A DNA stretch of 62,392 nt from an uncultured Actinomycetes bacterium (GCA_903953805.1 CAJBLC010000052.1:1-62392); one strand, 5' to 3'; shown: positions 6,198 to 40,426, numbered from the stretch's first letter. Translations and numbers: made by a program. The notes: generated by a model not told the origin, from the sequence alone.

Positions 6198-9100
6198 TCA
6201 GGCGAGGATGCAATCTGCGCCAAGAATCTGCTTGAGGTCAGCGGAGAGGCTCGGTGAAGCGGTCACTCGGAGGGCGTCATCAATCTTCATCACCATGCCA
6301 CCACGACCATCTTCAACTTTGAGATGGACTTCACGATTTCCAGGATGAGATCTCAAGATCTCTTTCATTCGCTCGACAATTGGCGCAGTGACTCGAGCTG
6401 AATCCATCGAGATGAGGACTGGTCCAGTCGGTGCAGCGCTGATGTCCGGCATCGACATATCCAGTGCGGTGATGCGGAGGTTCTCTTCGCGGCGGTCGAC
6501 CCGGCCTCGAATCACGACCACCTTATCTTCAACAAGATTCATGGCATGAGTTGTGTAGGTATTTGCAAAGAAGAGAACATCGGCAGAGCCTTCAAGATCT
6601 TCAATCGTGACGATCGCCCATGATTTACCTTGCTTGGAAACTTTTCGTTGTACTGAGGTGATGAGTCCACCGATCGAGACGATAGCCTCGTGACCAACTG
6701 AATCATCCGCAAGTGCCGAGATCGGCATATCAACCGCTGCGCGCAAGATATGTTCAACACCAAAGAGCGGATGGTCTGAAACATAGAGACCTAACATCTC
6801 GCGTTCGTAACTGAGAAGAAGAGATTTCTCCCATTCCTCTGAGGGGATATCGACCTCAACGCTTGAGACTGTAGAACCACTATCTGGAGTAGATCCAAAG
6901 AGATCGTATTGACCCAATGATTCTGCTCGCTTGCTCTCCATGACTGAATCAATCGCACCTAAGTAGATCATCATCAGACCACGGCGGCTATGTCCGAGCG
7001 AGTCGAATGCTCCCGCTTTAATGAGCGATTCAATGGTCTTCTTATTGCAGACTTGTTGATCCACCTTCGCCAAGAAATCGCCGAAAGATGTGTAACGACC
7101 CTTCTCGTGGCGGGCGGCAACAATAGCTGCAGTAACGTTTTCACCGACATTGCGGATAGCGCTCAATCCAAAACGGATATCGCTCCCACGTGGTGTGTAA
7201 TCAGATTCTGATTCATTGACATCCGGAGGGAGAACCTTGATTCCCATGCGACGACACTCGCTGAGATAGAGCGCGCTCTTATCTTTGTCGTCCCGCACGC
7301 TGGTGAGAAGTGCCGACATGTACTCAGTAGGGAAATTAGCTTTGAGATAGGCGGTCCAAAATGAGACCACTCCATACCCTGCGCTATGTGCTCGGTTGAA
7401 GGCATAGTCCGCAAACGGGATTAACGTCTCCCATAACTTTGCGATCGCGCCCTTGGAGAAACCATTCTCAAACATGCCCGCCTCAAAATTTACAAACTCT
7501 TTATCCAGAATCTCTTTCTGCTTCTTACCCATCGCCTTACGAAGGAGATCCGCACGACCGAGAGAGAAGCCCGCAACCTTTTGAGCAATCGCCATAACCT
7601 GCTCTTGGTAGACGATCAGGCCGTAGGTATTACCTAAAATCTCAGCGAGCGGCTCCGATAGCTCGGGGTGGATAGGGACAACCGGCTTACGTTTATTCTT
7701 TCGATCTGCATAATCATTATGTGCATTAACGCCCATCGGTCCTGGACGATAAAGTGCAATCACCGCTGAGATATCTTCAAAGGAATCTGGCGCCATCTGT
7801 CTAAGGAGTGCTCGCATTGGGCCGCCATCAAGTTGGAATACTCCCAGGGTGTCTCCGCGACCTAGAAGTTCAAATGTCTTTGCATCTGCAAGCTCGAGAT
7901 CTTCGAGGCGAATATCAATATTTTGATTCGACTTAATGTTGAGAAGCGCTTCATCGAGCACCGAGAGATTTCGGAGACCCAAGAAATCCATCTTGAGTAA
8001 TCCGATCGCTTCGCAGGCTCCCATATCGAACTGAGTGATGATCGCACCGTCATTTTCACGGCGATGGATAGGAATAACATCGAGCAATGGGTACTTACTC
8101 AGGATAACGCCAGCAGCATGCACGCCAGATTGTCGCTTGAGTCCCTCTAGACCACGGGCTGTATCAACAATCTTCTTTGAATCAGGATCTGTCTCATAGA
8201 GTGTTCGGAATTCACCGGCTTCGCCGTATCGATCATCCTTTGGATTGAAGATGCCTGAGAGCGTTATATCTTTCCCCATCACTGTTGGTGGCAGCGCCTT
8301 TGTTAAACGCTCACCTAGTGCATAGGGATAGCCGAGAACTCGTGTTGAATCTTTAAGCGCCTGCTTCGACTTAATATTGGAGTACGTAATGATCTGCGCT
8401 ACTCGATCTTCACCATACTTCTCAGTCGCATAGGCAATCATCTCGGAGCGACGACGTTCATCGAAGTCGAGGTCGATATCTGGCATGGAGATACGTTCTG
8501 GATTGAGGAAGCGCTCAAAGAGCAGGCCATGGCGGATCGGATCTAGTTGAGTGATTCCTAGTGCATAGGAGACGAGCGAGCCGGCGGCGGAGCCACGACC
8601 TGGACCGACGCGGATTCCAACTTCACGGGCATGCTCACACAGATCTGCGACAACGAGGAAGTACCCCGGGAATCCCATCTTGATCATCGTATCCAGCTCG
8701 TAGTCGAGTCGCTCTTGATACTCAGCTGGAAGATCGCCTCCAAGGCGAACTCTCATACCCTCGTTAGCGAGTTTTCGTAGCCAAGAATCTTCGCTCTCGC
8801 CCTTGGGGACATCGAACTGCGGCAAGAGATTTTCATGGTCGCGCATCGTCGTATTGCAACGTTCAGCGATCAAAAGGGTGTTGTCGCAAGCACCTTCGAG
8901 CTCTGCAAATTTCTCGCGCATCTGCGCAGGGGTCTTGAGATAGAACTCGTCATTATCAAATTTAAATCGCTTCGGATCGGCGATCGTTGAACCACTTTGC
9001 ACACAGAGCAGTGCTTCATGAGCGCCAGCATCCTCATGCTTTGTATAGTGAAGATCATTTGTCGCTAACAGCGGAAGCCCAAGATCCTTACCCAATTTGA

Positions 9101-9707
9101 GAAGTTCAGATTTCACTCTGCTCTCAATTTCAATTCCGTGATCCATTACTTCAAGGAAGAAATTCTCTTTTCCAAAGATATCTCGAAGTTCACTCGCTGC
9201 TGCACGAGCTTCTTTATATGCCCCCATCCGCAATCGAGTTTGAACTTCTCCTCCGGGACAACCCGTCGTTGCAATGATTCCCTTCGAATATTGCGCGAGC
9301 AGTTCACGATCCATGCGTGGCTTGTAGTAAAAACCTTCAAGGGATGCGAGCGAAGAAAGTCTAAAGAGATTTCCCAAACCCTCATTATTTTCAGCGAGCA
9401 AGGTCATATGTGTATATGCGCCGCCACCTGAGACATCATCTTCTCCACCATCGGCCCATTTCACGCGACTCTTGGTGAAGCGCGATTCGGGCGCAACATA
9501 AGCTTCGATGCCGATGATTGGCTTCACGCCCGCTTTTAAGGCCTGCTTATTAAATTCGTACGCACCAAAGACATTGCCATGATCGGTAATCGCTATAGCT
9601 GGCATCTCTAGCCGAGCCACCTCTTTTACGAGTTCGTCGACGCGCGCCGCACCATCGAGCATCGAGTACTCGGTGTGGACGTGAAGGTGGACGAAGCTAT
9701 CGGACAT
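6198..9707 (-). CDS. dnaE: DNA polymerase III alpha subunit (replicative)
   Basis: 1169 aa. PHP start FVHLHVHTEYSMLDGA and catalytic PDIDLDFDERRR. It is full length with an OB-fold/C-terminal region. Confidence 0.96.
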   Translation of the reverse strand: MSDSFVHLHVHTEYSMLDGAARVDELVKEVARLEMPAIAITDHGNVFGAYEFNKQALKAGVKPIIGIEAYVAPESRFTKSRVKWADGGEDDVSGGGAYTHMTLLAENNEGLGNLFRLSSLASLEGFYYKPRMDRELLAQYSKGIIATTGCPGGEVQTRLRMGAYKEARAAASELRDIFGKENFFLEVMDHGIEIESRVKSELLKLGKDLGLPLLATNDLHYTKHEDAGAHEALLCVQSGSTIADPKRFKFDNDEFYLKTPAQMREKFAELEGACDNTLLIAERCNTTMRDHENLLPQFDVPKGESEDSWLRKLANEGMRVRLGGDLPAEYQERLDYELDTMIKMGFPGYFLVVADLCEHAREVGIRVGPGRGSAAGSLVSYALGITQLDPIRHGLLFERFLNPERISMPDIDLDFDERRRSEMIAYATEKYGEDRVAQIITYSNIKSKQALKDSTRVLGYPYALGERLTKALPPTVMGKDITLSGIFNPKDDRYGEAGEFRTLYETDPDSKKIVDTARGLEGLKRQSGVHAAGVILSKYPLLDVIPIHRRENDGAIITQFDMGACEAIGLLKMDFLGLRNLSVLDEALLNIKSNQNIDIRLEDLELADAKTFELLGRGDTLGVFQLDGGPMRALLRQMAPDSFEDISAVIALYRPGPMGVNAHNDYADRKNKRKPVVPIHPELSEPLAEILGNTYGLIVYQEQVMAIAQKVAGFSLGRADLLRKAMGKKQKEILDKEFVNFEAGMFENGFSKGAIAKLWETLIPFADYAFNRAHSAGYGVVSFWTAYLKANFPTEYMSALLTSVRDDKDKSALYLSECRRMGIKVLPPDVNESESDYTPRGSDIRFGLSAIRNVGENVTAAIVAARHEKGRYTSFGDFLAKVDQQVCNKKTIESLIKAGAFDSLGHSRRGLMMIYLGAIDSVMESKRAESLGQYDLFGSTPDSGSTVSSVEVDIPSEEWEKSLLLSYEREMLGLYVSDHPLFGVEHILRAAVDMPISALADDSVGHEAIVSIGGLITSVQRKVSKQGKSWAIVTIEDLEGSADVLFFANTYTTHAMNLVEDKVVVIRGRVDRREENLRITALDMSMPDISAAPTGPVLISMDSARVTAPIVERMKEILRSHPGNREVHLKVEDGRGGMVMKIDDALRVTASPSLSADLKQILGADCILA

Positions 9708-35032: not shown

Positions 35033-35398
35033 CTACTGATTATTGCGGTCATCCCAGCGACGCTCGAGGCGATCGCTCCAACGTGGCGAGCGATTTTTTC
35101 CGGAAGAAGTTCCGGTGTTCTTGCCCATCATCTGGCGCAATGAGAAATTTGAGATAGCGGTAAATGCACCGCTGAGAGCGATAATGAAGCCGATAACACC
35201 AACCACAGTATTCTTTGCAACGAGGCCAGCGACGATAACTGCCAAGCCAGTAAGAACGGCGAAGAATCCCGCGAGAACACGTGAAGCCTGACGCGTACGG
35301 GCTTTACCGCTTAGCGCACCTACGAGACGTGGGTCATCCGCGGCAAGCGCCGCCTCCATCTCCGCTAAGAGCTTCTGTTCATGTTCTGAGAGTGCCAC
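35033..35398 (-). CDS. DUF3040-family small membrane protein
   Basis: 121 aa. MALSEHEQKLLAEMEAALAADDPRL followed by two TM helices is the typical actinobacterial DUF3040 architecture. Confidence 0.8.
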   Translation of the reverse strand: MALSEHEQKLLAEMEAALAADDPRLVGALSGKARTRQASRVLAGFFAVLTGLAVIVAGLVAKNTVVGVIGFIIALSGAFTAISNFSLRQMMGKNTGTSSGKNRSPRWSDRLERRWDDRNNQ

Positions 35399-35413: not shown

Positions 35414-36616
35414 CTAATCCTGGGATTCGTCAGCCTCAGTAGAGGAGACCAGGCGGGCAGGCCGAACGCTCCCTCTGCCAAAACGCTTTGTTGCCGCATC
35501 CATAGCCGCCGTCGCCTCCCGCCAGCCCTTTTCGCGCTCACCGAGGAGAAGTTGCTGGGGGGAACCGGTGCCATCACTGAGATTTTCGAGCGATACGCCG
35601 ACTAAGCGAATTCTCGCTCGATCTAATTTCAGCGCCTTGTAAAGATTCCGGACTACCTCGTAGCACTCTTGAACTCCACTGATCGGAAGTGGCACGGTCT
35701 TAGAGCGGCTGATGGTTGTGAAATCTGCAAATCTAATTTTTATCGCAATTGTTTTACTCACAAGTCCACGATCACGAAGTCGATGAGATGCCCGCTCCAC
35801 CATGCGAAGTAATTCGCGAAGGATCTCCTCGTGATTATCGAGATCGATCAGAAAGGTCTCTTCCGCACCAATACTTTTATCTGGTTCATCCGTTGTTACG
35901 CTTCGATAGTCGCGACCCCACGCCAACTCGTAGAGCGTCTCCCCTGCTGATTGACCGAGAGCGCGTATCAAAGTCGCACGCGGCGTCTGCGCAATATCAC
36001 CGATCTTGGTTAAGCCAATACGCTGAAGTTCTTCATTTGTCTTTGGCCCAACGCCCCACATCGCACTCACTGGTAGTGGGTGGAGAAATTCAAGAATACG
36101 ACTCTGCTCAATCTCCAACATTCCATTTGGCTTGGCATATGTTGATGCGAGCTTGGCAATAAATTTCGAAGGGGCGATTCCTACTGAGCAGGTGATCCCC
36201 TCTTCGCTCTCAACTCGTGCCCGAATCTTGGCGGCGATCACTCTTCCATCGCCATGCAACCTCTGACTTCCTGTGACATCGAGAAAGGCTTCATCAAGAG
36301 AGAGCGGCTCAACCAGCGGGGTAAAGGAGTGGAAGATCTCCATAATGTGGCGAGAGATTTCTGCATTTCGTTCCATATTGACCGGAACGAAGATTGCGTG
36401 CGGGGCTAATCGTCGCGCTTGTCCGAGGGGCATGGCAGAGCGCACACCAAATTTTCGCGCTTCATAATTTGCCGATGAGACAACTCCGCGTGCTCCCATG
36501 CCAACGACAACTGGCTTTCCTTTGAGTGTTGGGTCATCGCGTTCTGCAACCGATGCATAGAAGGCATCCATATCAACGTGGAGAATGGTGAGCCGCTTCT
36601 CATCTAACTCACTCAT
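35414..36616 (-). CDS. dinB: DNA polymerase IV (Y-family, catalytic residues intact)
   Basis: Contains LTILHVDMDAFYASV, SLDEAFLDVT, GIAPSKFIAKLAS and PVSAMWGVGPKT. The ATG at 36616 overlaps the dnaE2 stop by 8 nt. Confidence 0.9.
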   Translation of the reverse strand: MSELDEKRLTILHVDMDAFYASVAERDDPTLKGKPVVVGMGARGVVSSANYEARKFGVRSAMPLGQARRLAPHAIFVPVNMERNAEISRHIMEIFHSFTPLVEPLSLDEAFLDVTGSQRLHGDGRVIAAKIRARVESEEGITCSVGIAPSKFIAKLASTYAKPNGMLEIEQSRILEFLHPLPVSAMWGVGPKTNEELQRIGLTKIGDIAQTPRATLIRALGQSAGETLYELAWGRDYRSVTTDEPDKSIGAEETFLIDLDNHEEILRELLRMVERASHRLRDRGLVSKTIAIKIRFADFTTISRSKTVPLPISGVQECYEVVRNLYKALKLDRARIRLVGVSLENLSDGTGSPQQLLLGEREKGWREATAAMDAATKRFGRGSVRPARLVSSTEADESQD

Positions 36617-39600
36617 GGACTGCTCGCTCACGAGAGTTGAGATTACGCCACTTCTCATATGAGGAGCCGAGTTCCCACGCCTTTGTTGCGCGAATAGAGA
36701 GTCCGCGCGGCCCCGTTCTGCGCACCTCGCCCTTTACCAAAAAGAGTGATGAGCTATAGAGAAGAGCGGCGCAGCTATTTTGCACATCCTCGAAGAAGGT
36801 AATGTCACTACACCCGTAGCCATCATCGAGTGTTAAGAAGATGACTCTCCTGCCTGACCGGACTGGCGGTGTTTGCAGCGCAACCTTTACACCAGCAACA
36901 AGTACTGGGCTTCCTGCTCGTTGGTGGATGAGATCGGAAGATCTGATCGCCCCTACATGGTTGAGAAAATCGCCATAGAACTCGAGCATATGGCGGGAGA
37001 TATCCATTCCCGTAATATCAATCTCATGGCGCACTCGCTCAGCTGCAGTGAGATCTGGAAGCCCAGTTGATTCAAGTGGTGGCGGCGTTAATCCAAGAGT
37101 TAACTGACCGCTCCCGAGGTTACCCTTCTTCGATGCTGATAATTTATAGAGATCCTGCGCATGCAGCAAGAGGTCTCTTCTATTAAGAGCGCTCTTCTCT
37201 TCTGGTCCAATCTTATGAAGAGCATCAAATGCTCCAACCAGAATAAGAGCTTGCGTTGTTGGATATGCAGAGCCAGATCGTGCAACAAAATCAGCAAGAT
37301 CAAGATAAGGACGCGCACTGAGAATCGTCTCAATTTCGCCACTACTAATTCCCTGGATCTCGCTGAGTGCGATACGAATCGCATACCCTCGCGCATCTGG
37401 TAGCGAGAGTGAACTTCCGGTGCTGATTAAATCTGGTGCGACATAAGGGGCTCGTGCTCCATCATCAGAAGGCGAGATCTTCTCTACGCGATACGTTCGA
37501 TCTGAACGATTGATATCGATAGGAGCAATAACAATCCCCCATTGGCGAGCCTCATCAAGAATCAATCGCTTTGGATACATCCCCGGATCGTGGGTAAGCG
37601 CTCCAGCTATAAATGCCGCAGTGTGATGTGTCTTCAACCATGCCGATTGATAAGTAGGAAGTGCAAAAGCGGCTGCATGCGCCTTGCAGAATCCAAAGGA
37701 GGCGAAGGCTCGAAGAACATCCCAGACCTTATCGACAACCTTCATCTCGAAGCCTTGCGCAAGCGCTGCTGGGTAGAACCAATCGCAGACCGCTTGCTGA
37801 CTTTCAAGGGATCCCAACTGTCGACGGCGCTCATCTGAGTGCGCAAGTGAGGAGCCGGTCATGACCGAGATCAGGCGTATGACTTGCTCATGGAATACGA
37901 CAACTCCTTCAGTCTCTTCCAGAATTGGATCGAGCTGTGGATGGAGAAGGGTGCGACTTCGATGGCCATGTCGGGTATTAATAAAAGGGGTAATCATGTC
38001 GCTCTTCACTGGCCCAGGACGGAAGAGAGAGATATCAATGATGAGATCGGTAAATGTCGAGGGAGCAAACTTTCCGACAAGCTCACGCTGCCCCGGACTC
38101 TCTACTTGGAATATTCCTAAGGTCCGAGTCGATTTAATCAAATCAAAGGTCTTGTGATCATTGAGTGGAATAACATCGATATCGACACGCTTCTCTTCTA
38201 CTCTCTCTATTTCAGAGAGGGCATATGAGATAGCAGATTGCATCCGCACACCAAGAACATCGAGTTTGAGAAGGCCGATCGCCTCAACATCATCTTTATC
38301 GAAATAGACCATGGGATAGTTGCTTGAATTCCGAAGAGTCGGTGCGACATCGCCAAGTTTTGCATCCGAGAGGATGATGGCACAGGGGTGCATCGAGAGG
38401 TGGCGCGGTAATCCATCAATCCTTCCGGCAAGTTCAATCGCCATCTTCATGATTGGCGTATTGAGTTTGAGTCCTTTGAGCTCGGGAAGGTTCTCAAGTG
38501 CCTTACCGATGTTGCGAGCGCGAATATGCGGCAGAGATTTTGCAATCAGATCAATCTCCATCGGAGATATCCCCAAAGCTGCTCCGACATCACGAATAGC
38601 GTGACGTGCTCGGTAGGTATCGACCATTGCAACTGTTGCAGTTCTCTCCGGGCCATACCTCTCAAAGATTGCATCGTAGATTTCAAGGCGACGTGCGGAT
38701 TCAACATCGATATCAATATCTGGAAGTTCACCGCGAAGCGTTGAGCAGAACCGCTCCATAAGAAGTCCTTGGCTCATCGGCTCAACTCCAGAAATTCCTA
38801 AGAGATAACAGATGAGCGATCCGGCGCCGCTTCCTCGCGCTGCTACCCGAATTCCTCTATCCCGTGCCATATCCGTTATATCTGCAACGGTAAGAAAATA
38901 TGATTCAAATCCAAGGGTGCGAATAGTCGCTAACTCTTCTTCAAGTCGCATTGCTGCACCGACTGATTCAGCTGATGAGTAACGCCGCGAAAAGCCAGCT
39001 TCAGCACGATCGCGGAGCTGGATAGCCATCTCTGCATGGTTGCGGGCGCCCACTACTGATGCTTCTGGCAAGTGGACTCCCCCGATGCCGATATCGCGGC
39101 GTGGCGAGAGGATGCAGCGCTCTGCCAAATTGTGAGTTGCCGCAAGGAGGGTCTTGCCATCTCGTTCACCCGCCATGCGCGCAATCTCATCTGCGACATA
39201 ACGCATCTCTTCACCACTTTTGAGATATCCCTCGCTATTTGTTCGCTCGATATGGCTATGGTGAAGCGGAACAAGTAACCGGGCAGCATCAAGAACATCT
39301 GCGACCGGCCCATCTGTGCGATTGAGCATTCGCGCAGCATTTGTGAGTACCGCTGGTAATCCATGATCGCGAGCGAAGGCTAAAGCCTTTGCCGCATAGG
39401 GAGTAGAGAGCGGACCATCTCCCTTTGCCAAGTGAGATGTGCATTCAATAATTTGTTCAGCGAAGAGATCGCGCGTCGCGTTGTACATAGAGAGTGCAGC
39501 ATCGTGGCGACGCGCAGCGATGCTCTGTGCGAGTTGAGAGTCATAGCCATGCATGATGAAGAGCTGTGATGAATGTTCAGACTCTTGCTGAAGAATTTCA

Positions 39601-39923
39601 TAGGTAAGGAGGTTCTCATTATTGACCTTATTCATAGCGCTGACTAAGCGATAGAGCGCAGAGAGCTTCCCTGCTGGAGCAAGCAGCGTCACGCGGTACT
39701 TCTTCTGAATAAAGCTGAGATTGATACCGAGGATCGGATTCACTCCATACGCTTCACAACTTTGAGCAAAACGAATTGCACCAGCTAAACCATCTCGATC
39801 AGTAAGAGCGAGTGAGCTCATCCCAAGCTCTGCCGCTCGAGCAACGAGGGCATCGGGCTGTGCTGTTCCATATTTAAAGGAGTAGCCGCTTGAGAGGTGA
39901 AGGTGTGTAAACTCTTTAAACAT
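36609..39923 (-). CDS. dnaE2: error-prone DNA polymerase III alpha homologue DnaE2 (ImuC)
   Basis: 1104 aa and a second alpha-subunit paralogue in this window. PHP start HLHLSSGYSF..LTDRDGL and catalytic PDIDIDVESARR. It lies behind a LexA box. Confidence 0.88.
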   Translation of the reverse strand: MFKEFTHLHLSSGYSFKYGTAQPDALVARAAELGMSSLALTDRDGLAGAIRFAQSCEAYGVNPILGINLSFIQKKYRVTLLAPAGKLSALYRLVSAMNKVNNENLLTYEILQQESEHSSQLFIMHGYDSQLAQSIAARRHDAALSMYNATRDLFAEQIIECTSHLAKGDGPLSTPYAAKALAFARDHGLPAVLTNAARMLNRTDGPVADVLDAARLLVPLHHSHIERTNSEGYLKSGEEMRYVADEIARMAGERDGKTLLAATHNLAERCILSPRRDIGIGGVHLPEASVVGARNHAEMAIQLRDRAEAGFSRRYSSAESVGAAMRLEEELATIRTLGFESYFLTVADITDMARDRGIRVAARGSGAGSLICYLLGISGVEPMSQGLLMERFCSTLRGELPDIDIDVESARRLEIYDAIFERYGPERTATVAMVDTYRARHAIRDVGAALGISPMEIDLIAKSLPHIRARNIGKALENLPELKGLKLNTPIMKMAIELAGRIDGLPRHLSMHPCAIILSDAKLGDVAPTLRNSSNYPMVYFDKDDVEAIGLLKLDVLGVRMQSAISYALSEIERVEEKRVDIDVIPLNDHKTFDLIKSTRTLGIFQVESPGQRELVGKFAPSTFTDLIIDISLFRPGPVKSDMITPFINTRHGHRSRTLLHPQLDPILEETEGVVVFHEQVIRLISVMTGSSLAHSDERRRQLGSLESQQAVCDWFYPAALAQGFEMKVVDKVWDVLRAFASFGFCKAHAAAFALPTYQSAWLKTHHTAAFIAGALTHDPGMYPKRLILDEARQWGIVIAPIDINRSDRTYRVEKISPSDDGARAPYVAPDLISTGSSLSLPDARGYAIRIALSEIQGISSGEIETILSARPYLDLADFVARSGSAYPTTQALILVGAFDALHKIGPEEKSALNRRDLLLHAQDLYKLSASKKGNLGSGQLTLGLTPPPLESTGLPDLTAAERVRHEIDITGMDISRHMLEFYGDFLNHVGAIRSSDLIHQRAGSPVLVAGVKVALQTPPVRSGRRVIFLTLDDGYGCSDITFFEDVQNSCAALLYSSSLFLVKGEVRRTGPRGLSIRATKAWELGSSYEKWRNLNSRERAVHE

Positions 39924-39960
39924 TGCAGTCCATAATTCGCTATCTCGTTATTAACTCGAG

Positions 39961-40326
39961 CTATCGGGGCCGAGATGTTGGACGAATCTGCCAACTCCCA
40001 GTGAGTTCATCGAGTTCGAGTTCAAAGGTAGCGAGCGCACCAACTGGCGCCGCCTCTACCCGCCAGATAGCGCGCGCTCCATCATCGAAGATCGTCTGTT
40101 CTAAATGTCTTTGATCCAACGGCCTCTGGCGATAATTTCCATCATCGATCCGGTTCCACCATCCCCCTGATTCGCGCCATCTCGAGGCGATGGCATGGAT
40201 GTGGAAGCGACGACCTTGGTAGATAAATTCGACCGGCTCGCCCTCAGGGGCCAATACCGGAGGGACCCTGGGGCTAGATGGCTCGGAGCTCTCAGGGGTT
40301 GCTGGGTTCTTCGTTGATTCGAACAT
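39961..40326 (-). CDS. hypothetical 121-aa protein, first gene of the SOS-box-controlled dnaE2 operon
   Basis: It has a Pro/Ser/Glu-rich N-terminus followed by EFIYQGRRFHIHAIASRWRESGGWWNRIDDGNYR. It lies 37 nt upstream of dnaE2 on the same strand. Its ATG is inside the LexA palindrome. I did not recognise a family. Confidence 0.65.
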   Translation of the reverse strand: MFESTKNPATPESSEPSSPRVPPVLAPEGEPVEFIYQGRRFHIHAIASRWRESGGWWNRIDDGNYRQRPLDQRHLEQTIFDDGARAIWRVEAAPVGALATFELELDELTGSWQIRPTSRPR

Positions 40327-40335
40327 ATGTTCGAA
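40318..40335. promoter_or_regulatory. LexA operator (SOS box), perfect palindrome
   Basis: The sequence TTCGAACATATGTTCGAA contains the actinobacterial consensus TCGAAC-N4-GTTCGA with no mismatch. It overlaps the start codon at 40326. Confidence 0.85.
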
Positions 40336-40363
40336 AGATAGCCCTCGCCACTGACAGTGGCAA
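40335..40363 (-). promoter_or_regulatory. promoter of the dnaE2 operon: RecA-NDp-type motif TGTCAGTG-N8-TATCTT (also a TTGCCA-N17-TATCTT reading)
   Basis: On the minus strand: TTGCCA (40363-40358), TGTCAGTG (40356-40349), gcgagggc, TATCTT (40340-40335). The ATG follows 8 nt later with no Shine-Dalgarno, so the transcript is leaderless or near-leaderless. Confidence 0.65.
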
Positions 40364-40426
40364 GGTGGCTCCGCTCCGTAGTCCAGCCTGGCTTACAGAG
40401 CCTCGCCGATCTGCCACGATACCCAC

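Follow-up and report, generated by a model that had tools for sequence, protein, structure and literature searches.

A probable SOS-controlled, split-ImuB translesion/mutagenesis operon of the DnaE2B-PolY-ImuB-C-RecA type in a genome-streamlined freshwater actinobacterium

The current work concerns three consecutive genes present on the minus strand of a 62-kb stretch of DNA (GCA_903953805.1 CAJBLC010000052.1:1-62392, hereafter named the window) from an uncultured Actinomycetes bacterium. These genes are located at positions 35414-40326 and specify, in the order of transcription, a small protein corresponding to a standalone C-terminal domain of ImuB (ImuB-C), a DnaE2-type polymerase and a Y-family polymerase (PolY). 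They constitute a non-canonical and almost certainly damage-inducible module, being a member of a class that had been predicted by computer and whose gene set is not new; new in the present analysis is the control region, in which a predicted LexA box is located on the first start codon next to a PafBC-type motif. It is considered probable that the operon specifies an SOS-controlled split-ImuB machine for translesion synthesis/mutagenesis that conforms to the published DnaE2B-PolY-ImuB-C-RecA type, present in this case in a genome-streamlined freshwater actinobacterium.

The first open reading frame (ORF; 40326-39961, minus strand) encodes 121 amino acids (aa) and is followed, after a gap of 37 nt, by an ORF of 1104 aa (39923-36609, minus strand). 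For the Y-family ORF, which terminates at 35414, the longest form begins at 36658 (414 aa), while alignment with homologues supports the ATG at 36616 (400 aa), which overlaps the dnaE2 stop codon (TGA, 36611-36609) by 8 nt. The positions of the three genes, as well as the gap and the overlap, agree with those given in a preliminary description of this DNA, as does the presence of a separate replicative dnaE at 6198-9707 (scoring 1504 as DNA polymerase III alpha, for which the cut-off is 1002), whose product shares 27% identity with the second copy. When one genome per species was scanned, 80 related loci were retrieved, all of which belong to freshwater actinobacterial metagenome-assembled genomes or isolates of Candidatus Nanopelagicales (acI lineage), several being situated on complete chromosomes of 1.38-1.45 Mb. 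In the closest of these the small protein is 100% and DnaE2 99% identical to the corresponding product of the window, which represents a genome of the Candidatus Nanopelagicaceae (acI) type. Fifteen of the 80 loci are too short to reveal the gene order, and a survey of the remaining 65 informative loci, as had been proposed in the preliminary description, retrieved the order ImuB-C, DnaE2, PolY in 63 of them (63/80 overall). The recurrence of this order in 63 of the 65 informative loci shows that the grouping of the three genes is not due to chance.

The product of the first gene (imuB-C, 39961..40326, minus strand) matches the DUF6504 family (PF20114, 33.8 bits versus a cut-off of 24.2), and its close homologues are all short standalone proteins. 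A profile derived from the Nanopelagicales ImuB-C proteins obtained 112 matches among 1.84 billion representative proteins, these being mostly short standalone proteins and including no typical ImuB; a broader alignment and a profile-profile comparison were required to establish the link with ImuB. In this comparison, a DUF6504 alignment of 44 diverse sequences was aligned by hhalign with six ImuB C-termini over 72 columns (probability 80%, E 1.4e-5). Furthermore, PF20114 matches residues 428-498 of the 503-aa ImuB encoded by the imuA-imuB-dnaE2 cassette of Agrobacterium pTiC58, this match being below threshold (E 0.004), and the 121-aa protein is 27% identical to the ImuB-C of Tessaracoccus (BLASTP, E 9e-7). 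The AlphaFold (AF2) model of the protein is all-beta with a single helix in a variable insert, so that it is a small all-beta protein and not a RecA-fold ImuA. Judged from these alignments, the 121-aa protein is ImuB's C-terminal domain (DUF6504 being ImuB-C) made as a separate protein, and ImuB would be split in this organism, not absent. A literature search under the name "DUF6504" retrieved no paper, the family being discussed as ImuB-C.

The top match of the ImuB-C profile and several others were rejected, being long eukaryote-like proteins built of tandem Tudor/SH3-like repeats (KVEAQYKGKSKFYPGVISRCRLNGTYDIDYDDGEKE), of which there are up to 26 in P0121, P0146 and P0227. Such repeat proteins score against the N-terminal half of the profile, which probably reflects weak similarity amplified by repetition; the matches echo a suggestion made in 2013 that ImuB-C is an SH3-like barrel. 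In one related locus (L067:7732-8007) the variable N-terminal region of ImuB-C carries a tandem peptide repeat (DQQVP) broken by a run of N, probably corresponding to an assembly gap.

The second gene (dnaE2, 36609..39923, minus strand) specifies a protein with PHP, DNA_pol3_alpha, finger, HHH_6 and OB domains (Pfam), whose NCBIfam scores, 633 for the error-prone polymerase (cut-off 939) and 628 for DnaE, each fall under the curated cut-off. This protein is 42-45% identical to the second DnaE copies of Streptomyces, Nonomuraea and Tessaracoccus (42% over the N-terminal 400 aa in the case of the Tessaracoccus DnaE2B) as compared to 26-30% for the DnaE2A proteins of proteobacterial imuA-imuB cassettes. 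In an unbootstrapped neighbour-joining tree of the first 400 residues, it is placed inside the actinobacterial DnaE2B clade and apart from six DnaE2A proteins of imuA-imuB cassettes. Identity values and tree placement both assign the polymerase to the DnaE2B group and not to the ImuA/ImuB-linked DnaE2A group. The palm motifs PDIDID and KLDVLG show no variation across 65 loci, and the palm active site appears intact. Conversely, metal ligands of the PHP domain are substituted (LDG by KYG and TDHGN by TDRDG, with HLH replaced by HLR in most relatives), such that the motifs read HLH/HLR...KYG and TDRDG versus the reference HLHVH...LDG and TDHGN; from these residues, the PHP proofreading site is predicted to be degenerate. 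The protein also contains an internal beta-clamp-binding-like motif, QLTLGL (residues 940-945; 37089..37106, minus strand), which aligns with the internal clamp motif of DnaE1 located before the OB fold and shows moderate conservation (Q[LM]TLGL) across 65 loci. Clamp binding by this motif is inferred from its resemblance to the E. coli Pol IV motif QLVLGL. The possibility that dnaE matches on Streptomyces plasmids represent DnaE1-type copies was rejected on the basis of an adjacent truncated Y-family gene and of the tree, which places them in DnaE2B.

The third gene (35414..36616, minus strand) specifies the 400-aa PolY, of the PolY-core/Pol IV type, with IMS, IMS_HHH and IMS_C domains (Pfam), which passes the curated NCBIfam cut-off for DNA polymerase IV (389.9 bits versus 367). 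Alignment to Pol IV structures demonstrates that D8, D10, D103 and E104 of E. coli Pol IV are kept as D15, D17, D108 and E109, and that a Tyr occupies the steric gate position that corresponds to F13 of the E. coli enzyme. PolY therefore looks catalytically intact and is not an ImuB, as the preliminary description had put forward. A predicted beta-clamp-binding motif, QQLLLG (residues 354-359; 35540..35557, minus strand), is the clamp-like segment already noticed in the preliminary description; it is conserved as [EQ]QLxLG in 63 loci and resembles the C-terminal clamp motif QLVLGL of E. coli Pol IV. A further motif, which that description had missed, is a RecA-N-terminus-like (RecA-NT) sequence, WREATAAMDAATKRFGRGSVRPARL (residues 365-389; 35450..35524, minus strand), which aligns with the tail of the Tessaracoccus PolY and whose consensus in 63 loci is GWREAxxAIDxAxxRFGxGSVRPARL. 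When set beside RecA sequences, this tail resembles RecA N-termini such as ALxxIEKxFGKGSVMRLG; the protein ends after this motif and does not carry a fused ImuB-C domain. The RecA-NT motif was defined in 2019 (PMC6511836), and in the published model it recruits RecA instead of ImuA.

The ImuB-C domain was named in 2013, when its standalone form beside DinB and DnaE2 was described (PMC3765255), and ImuA-less variants with a standalone ImuB-C were reported in 2019 by the Venclovas group (PMC6511836), which in 2026 sorted DnaE2 into groups A, B and X (Nucleic Acids Research; PMC12926913). In this last study, a "fourth DnaE2B group" combines DnaE2B and RecA with a standalone ImuB-C and a PolY that appears to be active, is found in Actinobacteria only and is exemplified by Tessaracoccus lapidicaptus; AlphaFold-Multimer modelling of the four-protein composition for five Actinobacteria produced an ipTM (interface predicted template modelling score) of 0.84 +/- 0.06 (PMC12926913). 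According to a table in the same study, Ca. Planktophila and Ca. Nanopelagicus each possess a total of four polymerases (DnaE1, DnaE2B, PolA1 and one PolY-core) and no DnaE2A (PMC12926913, table). Four features of this composition were found in the window, namely a DnaE2B polymerase, a standalone ImuB-C adjoining dnaE2, a canonical PolY active site and a RecA-NT tail on PolY. In Tessaracoccus lapidicaptus the corresponding proteins have consecutive accessions (VEP41449-41451) and their genes occur in the order seen in the window, and the two PolY proteins are 47% identical over 387 aa, with an alignment that runs through the clamp motif and the RecA-NT tail. Accordingly, the two systems share their three genes and gene order, the DnaE2B group, the standalone ImuB-C and an active-looking PolY-core with a RecA-NT tail. 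They differ in that the host of the window module belongs to a streamlined freshwater lineage with a genome of 1.2-1.4 Mb and ≈50% GC, and is not a high-GC soil actinomycete, in that the DnaE2 of the window is ≈150-200 residues shorter (1104 aa versus 1250-1320 aa), and in the fusion of its LexA box with the start codon; the class as published is itself only a prediction.

The interpretation offered in the preliminary description thus stands in part: the cassette is non-canonical and almost certainly inducible, lacks ImuA and contains an active-looking Pol IV. In contrast, the 121-aa protein, which had been regarded as an unknown replacing ImuA/ImuB, is DUF6504/ImuB-C, that is, one part of a split ImuB. 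Similarly, the suggestion that the module might not have been characterised is not sustained, as forerunners were described computationally in 2013 and 2019 and its exact composition in 2026 (with AlphaFold-Multimer), and its novelty is largely refuted by the fact that the gene order had already been described, a refuting condition named in the preliminary description itself.

Transcription of the operon is expected to start from a compact region immediately upstream of imuB-C. A promoter scan identified a -35-like hexamer, TTGCCA (40358..40363, minus strand), located 17 nt upstream of the -10 hexamer TATCTT (40340-40335), the CTTGC core of the -35-like region being 89-100% conserved in 81 aligned upstream regions. 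The -10 hexamer is included in a PafBC-type (RecA-NDp-like) motif, TGTCAG-N10-TATCTT (40335..40356, minus strand), of which TGTC and TATCTT are invariant in the 81 related upstream regions, while TGTC(A/G)G, positioned 10 bases upstream of TATCTT, is nearly invariant. This motif, the two halves of which are placed as -26/-10 elements, fits, with exact spacing, the mycobacterial PafBC consensus tGTCgg(N10)tA(N3)T (PMC8635444). Right after the -10 hexamer begins the predicted LexA operator (40319..40334, unstranded), an actinobacterial SOS box and perfect palindrome, TCGAACATATGTTCGA, which matches TCGAAC-N4-GTTCGA and contains the ATG of imuB-C (40326-40324). It represents the sole match in the window at 0 or 1 mismatch, and the identical 16-mer is located on the start codon in 80/80 related loci; apart from second copies in two loci (L021 and L026), no further exact SOS boxes were found in 0.98 Mb of related loci. 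Codons 2-3 of imuB-C (TTC GA.) generate an invariant N-terminus, Met-Phe-Glu/Asp (MFE/MFD), and it is because the identical 16-mer sits on the start codon that every ImuB-C homologue starts with MFE or MFD.

Considering that the -10 hexamer is separated from the imuB-C ATG by eight bases and that no Shine-Dalgarno sequence was found upstream of imuB-C, the mRNA is probably leaderless, with LexA positioned on the transcription start. Given the perfect predicted LexA box on the first start codon, the operon is almost certainly damage-inducible, in agreement with the preliminary description, and the arrangement of motifs suggests dual damage control (LexA and PafBC-type) of a leaderless mRNA. This logic has precedent, since the mycobacterial imuA'-imuB pair is controlled by both LexA and PafBC (PMC8682763) and leaderless SOS genes are known in mycobacteria. 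Among the systems examined here, an operator fused to the start codon was observed only in the Nanopelagicales clade, the box of Nonomuraea being located upstream of the coding frame. A more far-reaching proposal, to which we assign somewhat less than an even chance, is that the whole control is contained within ≈45 bp, in which a PafBC-type promoter abuts a LexA operator that would serve at once as the start of the leaderless mRNA and as codons 1-3 of ImuB-C. The operator would thereby dictate the MFE/MFD N-terminus, and the region would act as a damage switch with two inputs, governing half of the four DNA polymerases present in the cell.

A palindrome, GCCACTG-T-CAGTGGC (window 40343-40365, minus strand), extends over both the -35-like hexamer and the TGTC element, and its arms differ in other loci in a manner that looks compensatory (CCAC/GTGG, CTAC/GTAG, CCTC/GAGG and CCCC/GGGG); the region is not transcribed from that promoter.

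Comparison with other known systems places the module apart from the canonical ImuA/ImuA'-ImuB-DnaE2 mutasome (Caulobacter, Pseudomonas and Mycobacterium), the hallmarks of which (a dead ImuB with fused ImuB-C, a RecA-fold ImuA/ImuA' and a DnaE2A) are absent from the window genes. Both have in common SOS control, a proofreading-less DnaE2-type polymerase, an ImuB-C that is presumed to hold DnaE2, a RecA-NT motif and a clamp motif on the Y-family partner and, in mycobacteria, dual control by LexA and PafBC. In the window, however, the Y-family partner is catalytically intact as judged by its residues and unfused to ImuB-C, there is no ImuA, for which RecA is the presumed substitute, and DnaE2 is of group B, not A, and keeps a clamp-like motif. 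The Deinococcus cassette similarly combines a standalone ImuB-C, a Y-family protein and DnaE2 under LexA/RecA control without an ImuA, and is the only split-ImuB cassette for which genetics exist, UV (ultraviolet) mutagenesis requiring imuY and dnaE2; it differs in the predicted inactivity of its ImuY, in the location of lexA within the operon, in the gene order (Y-family, ImuB-C, DnaE2) and in the phylum of its host.

The dnaE2-dinB2 operon of Streptomyces (DnaE2B-iPolY-RecA) encodes a related DnaE2B, 37-39% identical in its N-terminal 400 aa, has a Y-family gene that overlaps the dnaE2 stop codon and an SOS box upstream, and is inducible by UV and methyl methanesulfonate (PMC3273824). Unlike the window, Streptomyces is without an ImuB-C gene, and the overlap amounts to 4 nt (ATGA) versus 8 nt. 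The DinB2 protein has been classed as an inactivated polymerase by a later survey (PMC12926913), and in a plasmid-borne copy the Y-family protein has a truncated IMS domain at its N-terminus (19 bits). The inactivated or truncated Y-family partner and the lack of ImuB-C that characterise the Streptomyces type are not seen in the window, where PolY is full-length and active-looking and ImuB-C is present. The linear plasmid of Streptomyces sp. NBC_00637 (L081:4992-10921) carries a dnaE2-like gene followed by a gene for a Y-family protein of 330 aa whose catalytic domain is truncated, lexA being located two genes beyond that gene; similar matches occur on many Streptomyces plasmids (152 records). 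In Nonomuraea gerenzanensis (L083:4276-8654), an ImuB-C-like ORF extends 10 nt into a gene for a 1220-aa DnaE2B-like protein, no Y-family gene follows downstream, and the start of the dnaE2-like gene is preceded at ≈330 nt by a GAACATATGTTCGA box, which is in another frame than the ImuB-C ORF.

A working scheme for the module can be formulated, the steps of which are taken from published models and from the mycobacterial system, whereas its parts, motifs, gene order and operator/promoter motifs are read from the sequence. In undamaged cells, LexA bound to the start site would block RNA polymerase. Upon damage, RecA filaments would trigger LexA cleavage, and a PafBC-like activator may provide a second input. 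A leaderless mRNA would then be made and its three proteins translated, with translation of PolY coupled to that of dnaE2 by means of the 8-nt overlap. ImuB-C would hold DnaE2's PHP domain, and PolY would contact DnaE2 via its thumb and take one RecA subunit via the RecA-NT tail, such that RecA occupies the place of ImuA. The clamp motifs of both polymerases would carry this complex to a stalled beta clamp, where one polymerase would insert opposite the lesion and the proofreading-less DnaE2 would extend, with mutations as the cost.

The principal alternative, which we regard as unlikely, is that the genes are merely co-regulated by a shared damage signal while their products work as separate enzymes: PolY would be the sole housekeeping Pol IV, acting alone or with RecA on the clamp, and ImuB-C and DnaE2 would form a two-protein unit of their own, like that of the DnaE2B-ImuB-C type already published. 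Consistent with this, a DnaE2B-ImuB-C pair without PolY occurs in Arthrobacter, Cryobacterium, Nonomuraea and loci L060 and L078, related complete genomes have no Y-family member other than PolY, which must hence cover ordinary Pol IV tasks, and PolY-RecA pairs are the commonest predicted complex (PMC12926913). Yet PolY follows dnaE2 in 63/65 informative loci, in frames that overlap or nearly abut, and the published multimer models of this composition predict confident four-chain complexes. Slightly less probable again is that DnaE2 is not a mutator and, once induced by damage, serves as a back-up or gap-filling polymerase that has little influence on the mutation rate, leaving translesion work to the Y-family polymerase. 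The internal clamp motif and intact palm kept by the window DnaE2 would suit such a role, as would the finding that deletion of dnaE2 in S. coelicolor leaves UV killing and UV mutagenesis unchanged, even though the gene is UV-induced together with dinB2, the downstream gene, which did matter (PMC3273824). Set against this are the PHP proofreading site, degenerate as in error-prone DnaE2, the role of ImuB-C as the DnaE2-binding element in the mutagenic mycobacterial complex (PMC12926913) and the requirement of the related Deinococcus cassette for UV mutagenesis. Finally, a canonical imuA'-imuB pair located elsewhere in the genome could serve DnaE2 in a mycobacteria-like manner, with the 121-aa protein and Pol IV as bystanders, for which it may be argued that the window covers only 62 kb of the genome and that mycobacteria, as is textbook knowledge, split the cassette. 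We consider this highly improbable: no ImuA, ImuB, RecA or LexA homologue was found within the 62-kb window, the complete genomes of Ca. Planktophila and Ca. Nanopelagicus contain a single Y-family gene and no DnaE2A, so that in those relatives the separate imuA'-imuB pair considered in the preliminary description has no second Y-family gene to correspond to (PMC12926913, table), the published survey encountered DnaE2B only in genomes without imuA/imuB (PMC12926913), and the window DnaE2 is placed outside the ImuA/ImuB-linked group.

Several further points count against the assignment of the operon to a split-ImuB mutagenesis machine of the DnaE2B-PolY-ImuB-C-RecA type. The four-protein complex rests on AlphaFold models of other species, and no published experiments were found on a variant in which both polymerases look active; given the Streptomyces result, DnaE2B may not be the main mutator. 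Loci L060 and L078 keep imuB-C and dnaE2 without an adjacent PolY, which is therefore not an obligatory neighbour. The ImuB-C model is of moderate confidence (predicted local distance difference test score of 68.7), and a search of PDB structures with this model returned nothing at E < 0.8 and adds no functional clue; the literature likewise describes the ImuB-C fold as being without a close solved relative. The tree used to place DnaE2 covers its N-terminal 400 residues only, and carries no bootstrap values. In the control region, 40335..40356 is the only exact TGTCRG-N10-TANNNT match in the window, but 0.5 matches are expected by chance in a single window, so that the motif is not significant alone, and the transcription start of the putative leaderless mRNA is a predicted one.

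The neighbouring gene on the same strand (35033..35398, minus strand) specifies a DUF3040/SCO2097-like small membrane protein (PF11239, 76 bits; NF058603, 103.9 bits versus a cut-off of 110), starts 15 nt past the PolY stop codon and follows PolY in 62/63 loci. No terminator-like site was found between the two genes in a terminator scan that was uninformative, its counts being equal to those of shuffled sequence and its sole strong hairpin being inside the promoter. The DUF3040 gene is possibly co-transcribed with the damage operon, though it is probably not part of the polymerase module; the DUF3040/SCO2097-like family has been tied to cell division and morphology in Streptomyces. As regards variation in layout, two loci (L021:8442-9801 and L026:8437-9778) carry an inserted type IV toxin-antitoxin pair, made up of the antitoxin AbiEi and the nucleotidyltransferase toxin AbiEii, after imuB-C and before the position of dnaE2. 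In both, this insert is followed by another exact SOS box (L021:9902 and L026:9857), located ≈90 nt before dnaE2 in L021, while the L026 contig stops before dnaE2. In L060:1290-4750 and L078:686-4279, unrelated genes are present at the place expected for the Y-family polymerase, and the dnaE2 ORF of L060 is ≈77 N-terminal residues short, which suggests decay.

As the gene set had already been catalogued and the closest systems modelled, the discovery is a modest one. The module shows that ImuB can exist in pieces, and the pairing of DnaE2 with an active-looking Y-family enzyme raises the question of how insertion opposite the lesion and extension are divided between the two polymerases. As regards regulation, the compact LexA/PafBC-type region yields a prediction that can be tested directly. 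If the proposed two-input switch is true, the lack of any base change in 80/80 genomes, from a bacterial lineage that ranks among the most abundant in freshwater, would imply that induced translesion synthesis/mutagenesis is strongly selected even in genomes of 1.2-1.4 Mb, and the mutasome operon could add to the well-known microdiversity of acI. With a tiny genome specifying four polymerases, in a lineage that is dominant in sunlit lake water, these bacteria provide a clean natural system in which to ask whether damage-induced mutagenesis is kept under genome streamlining.

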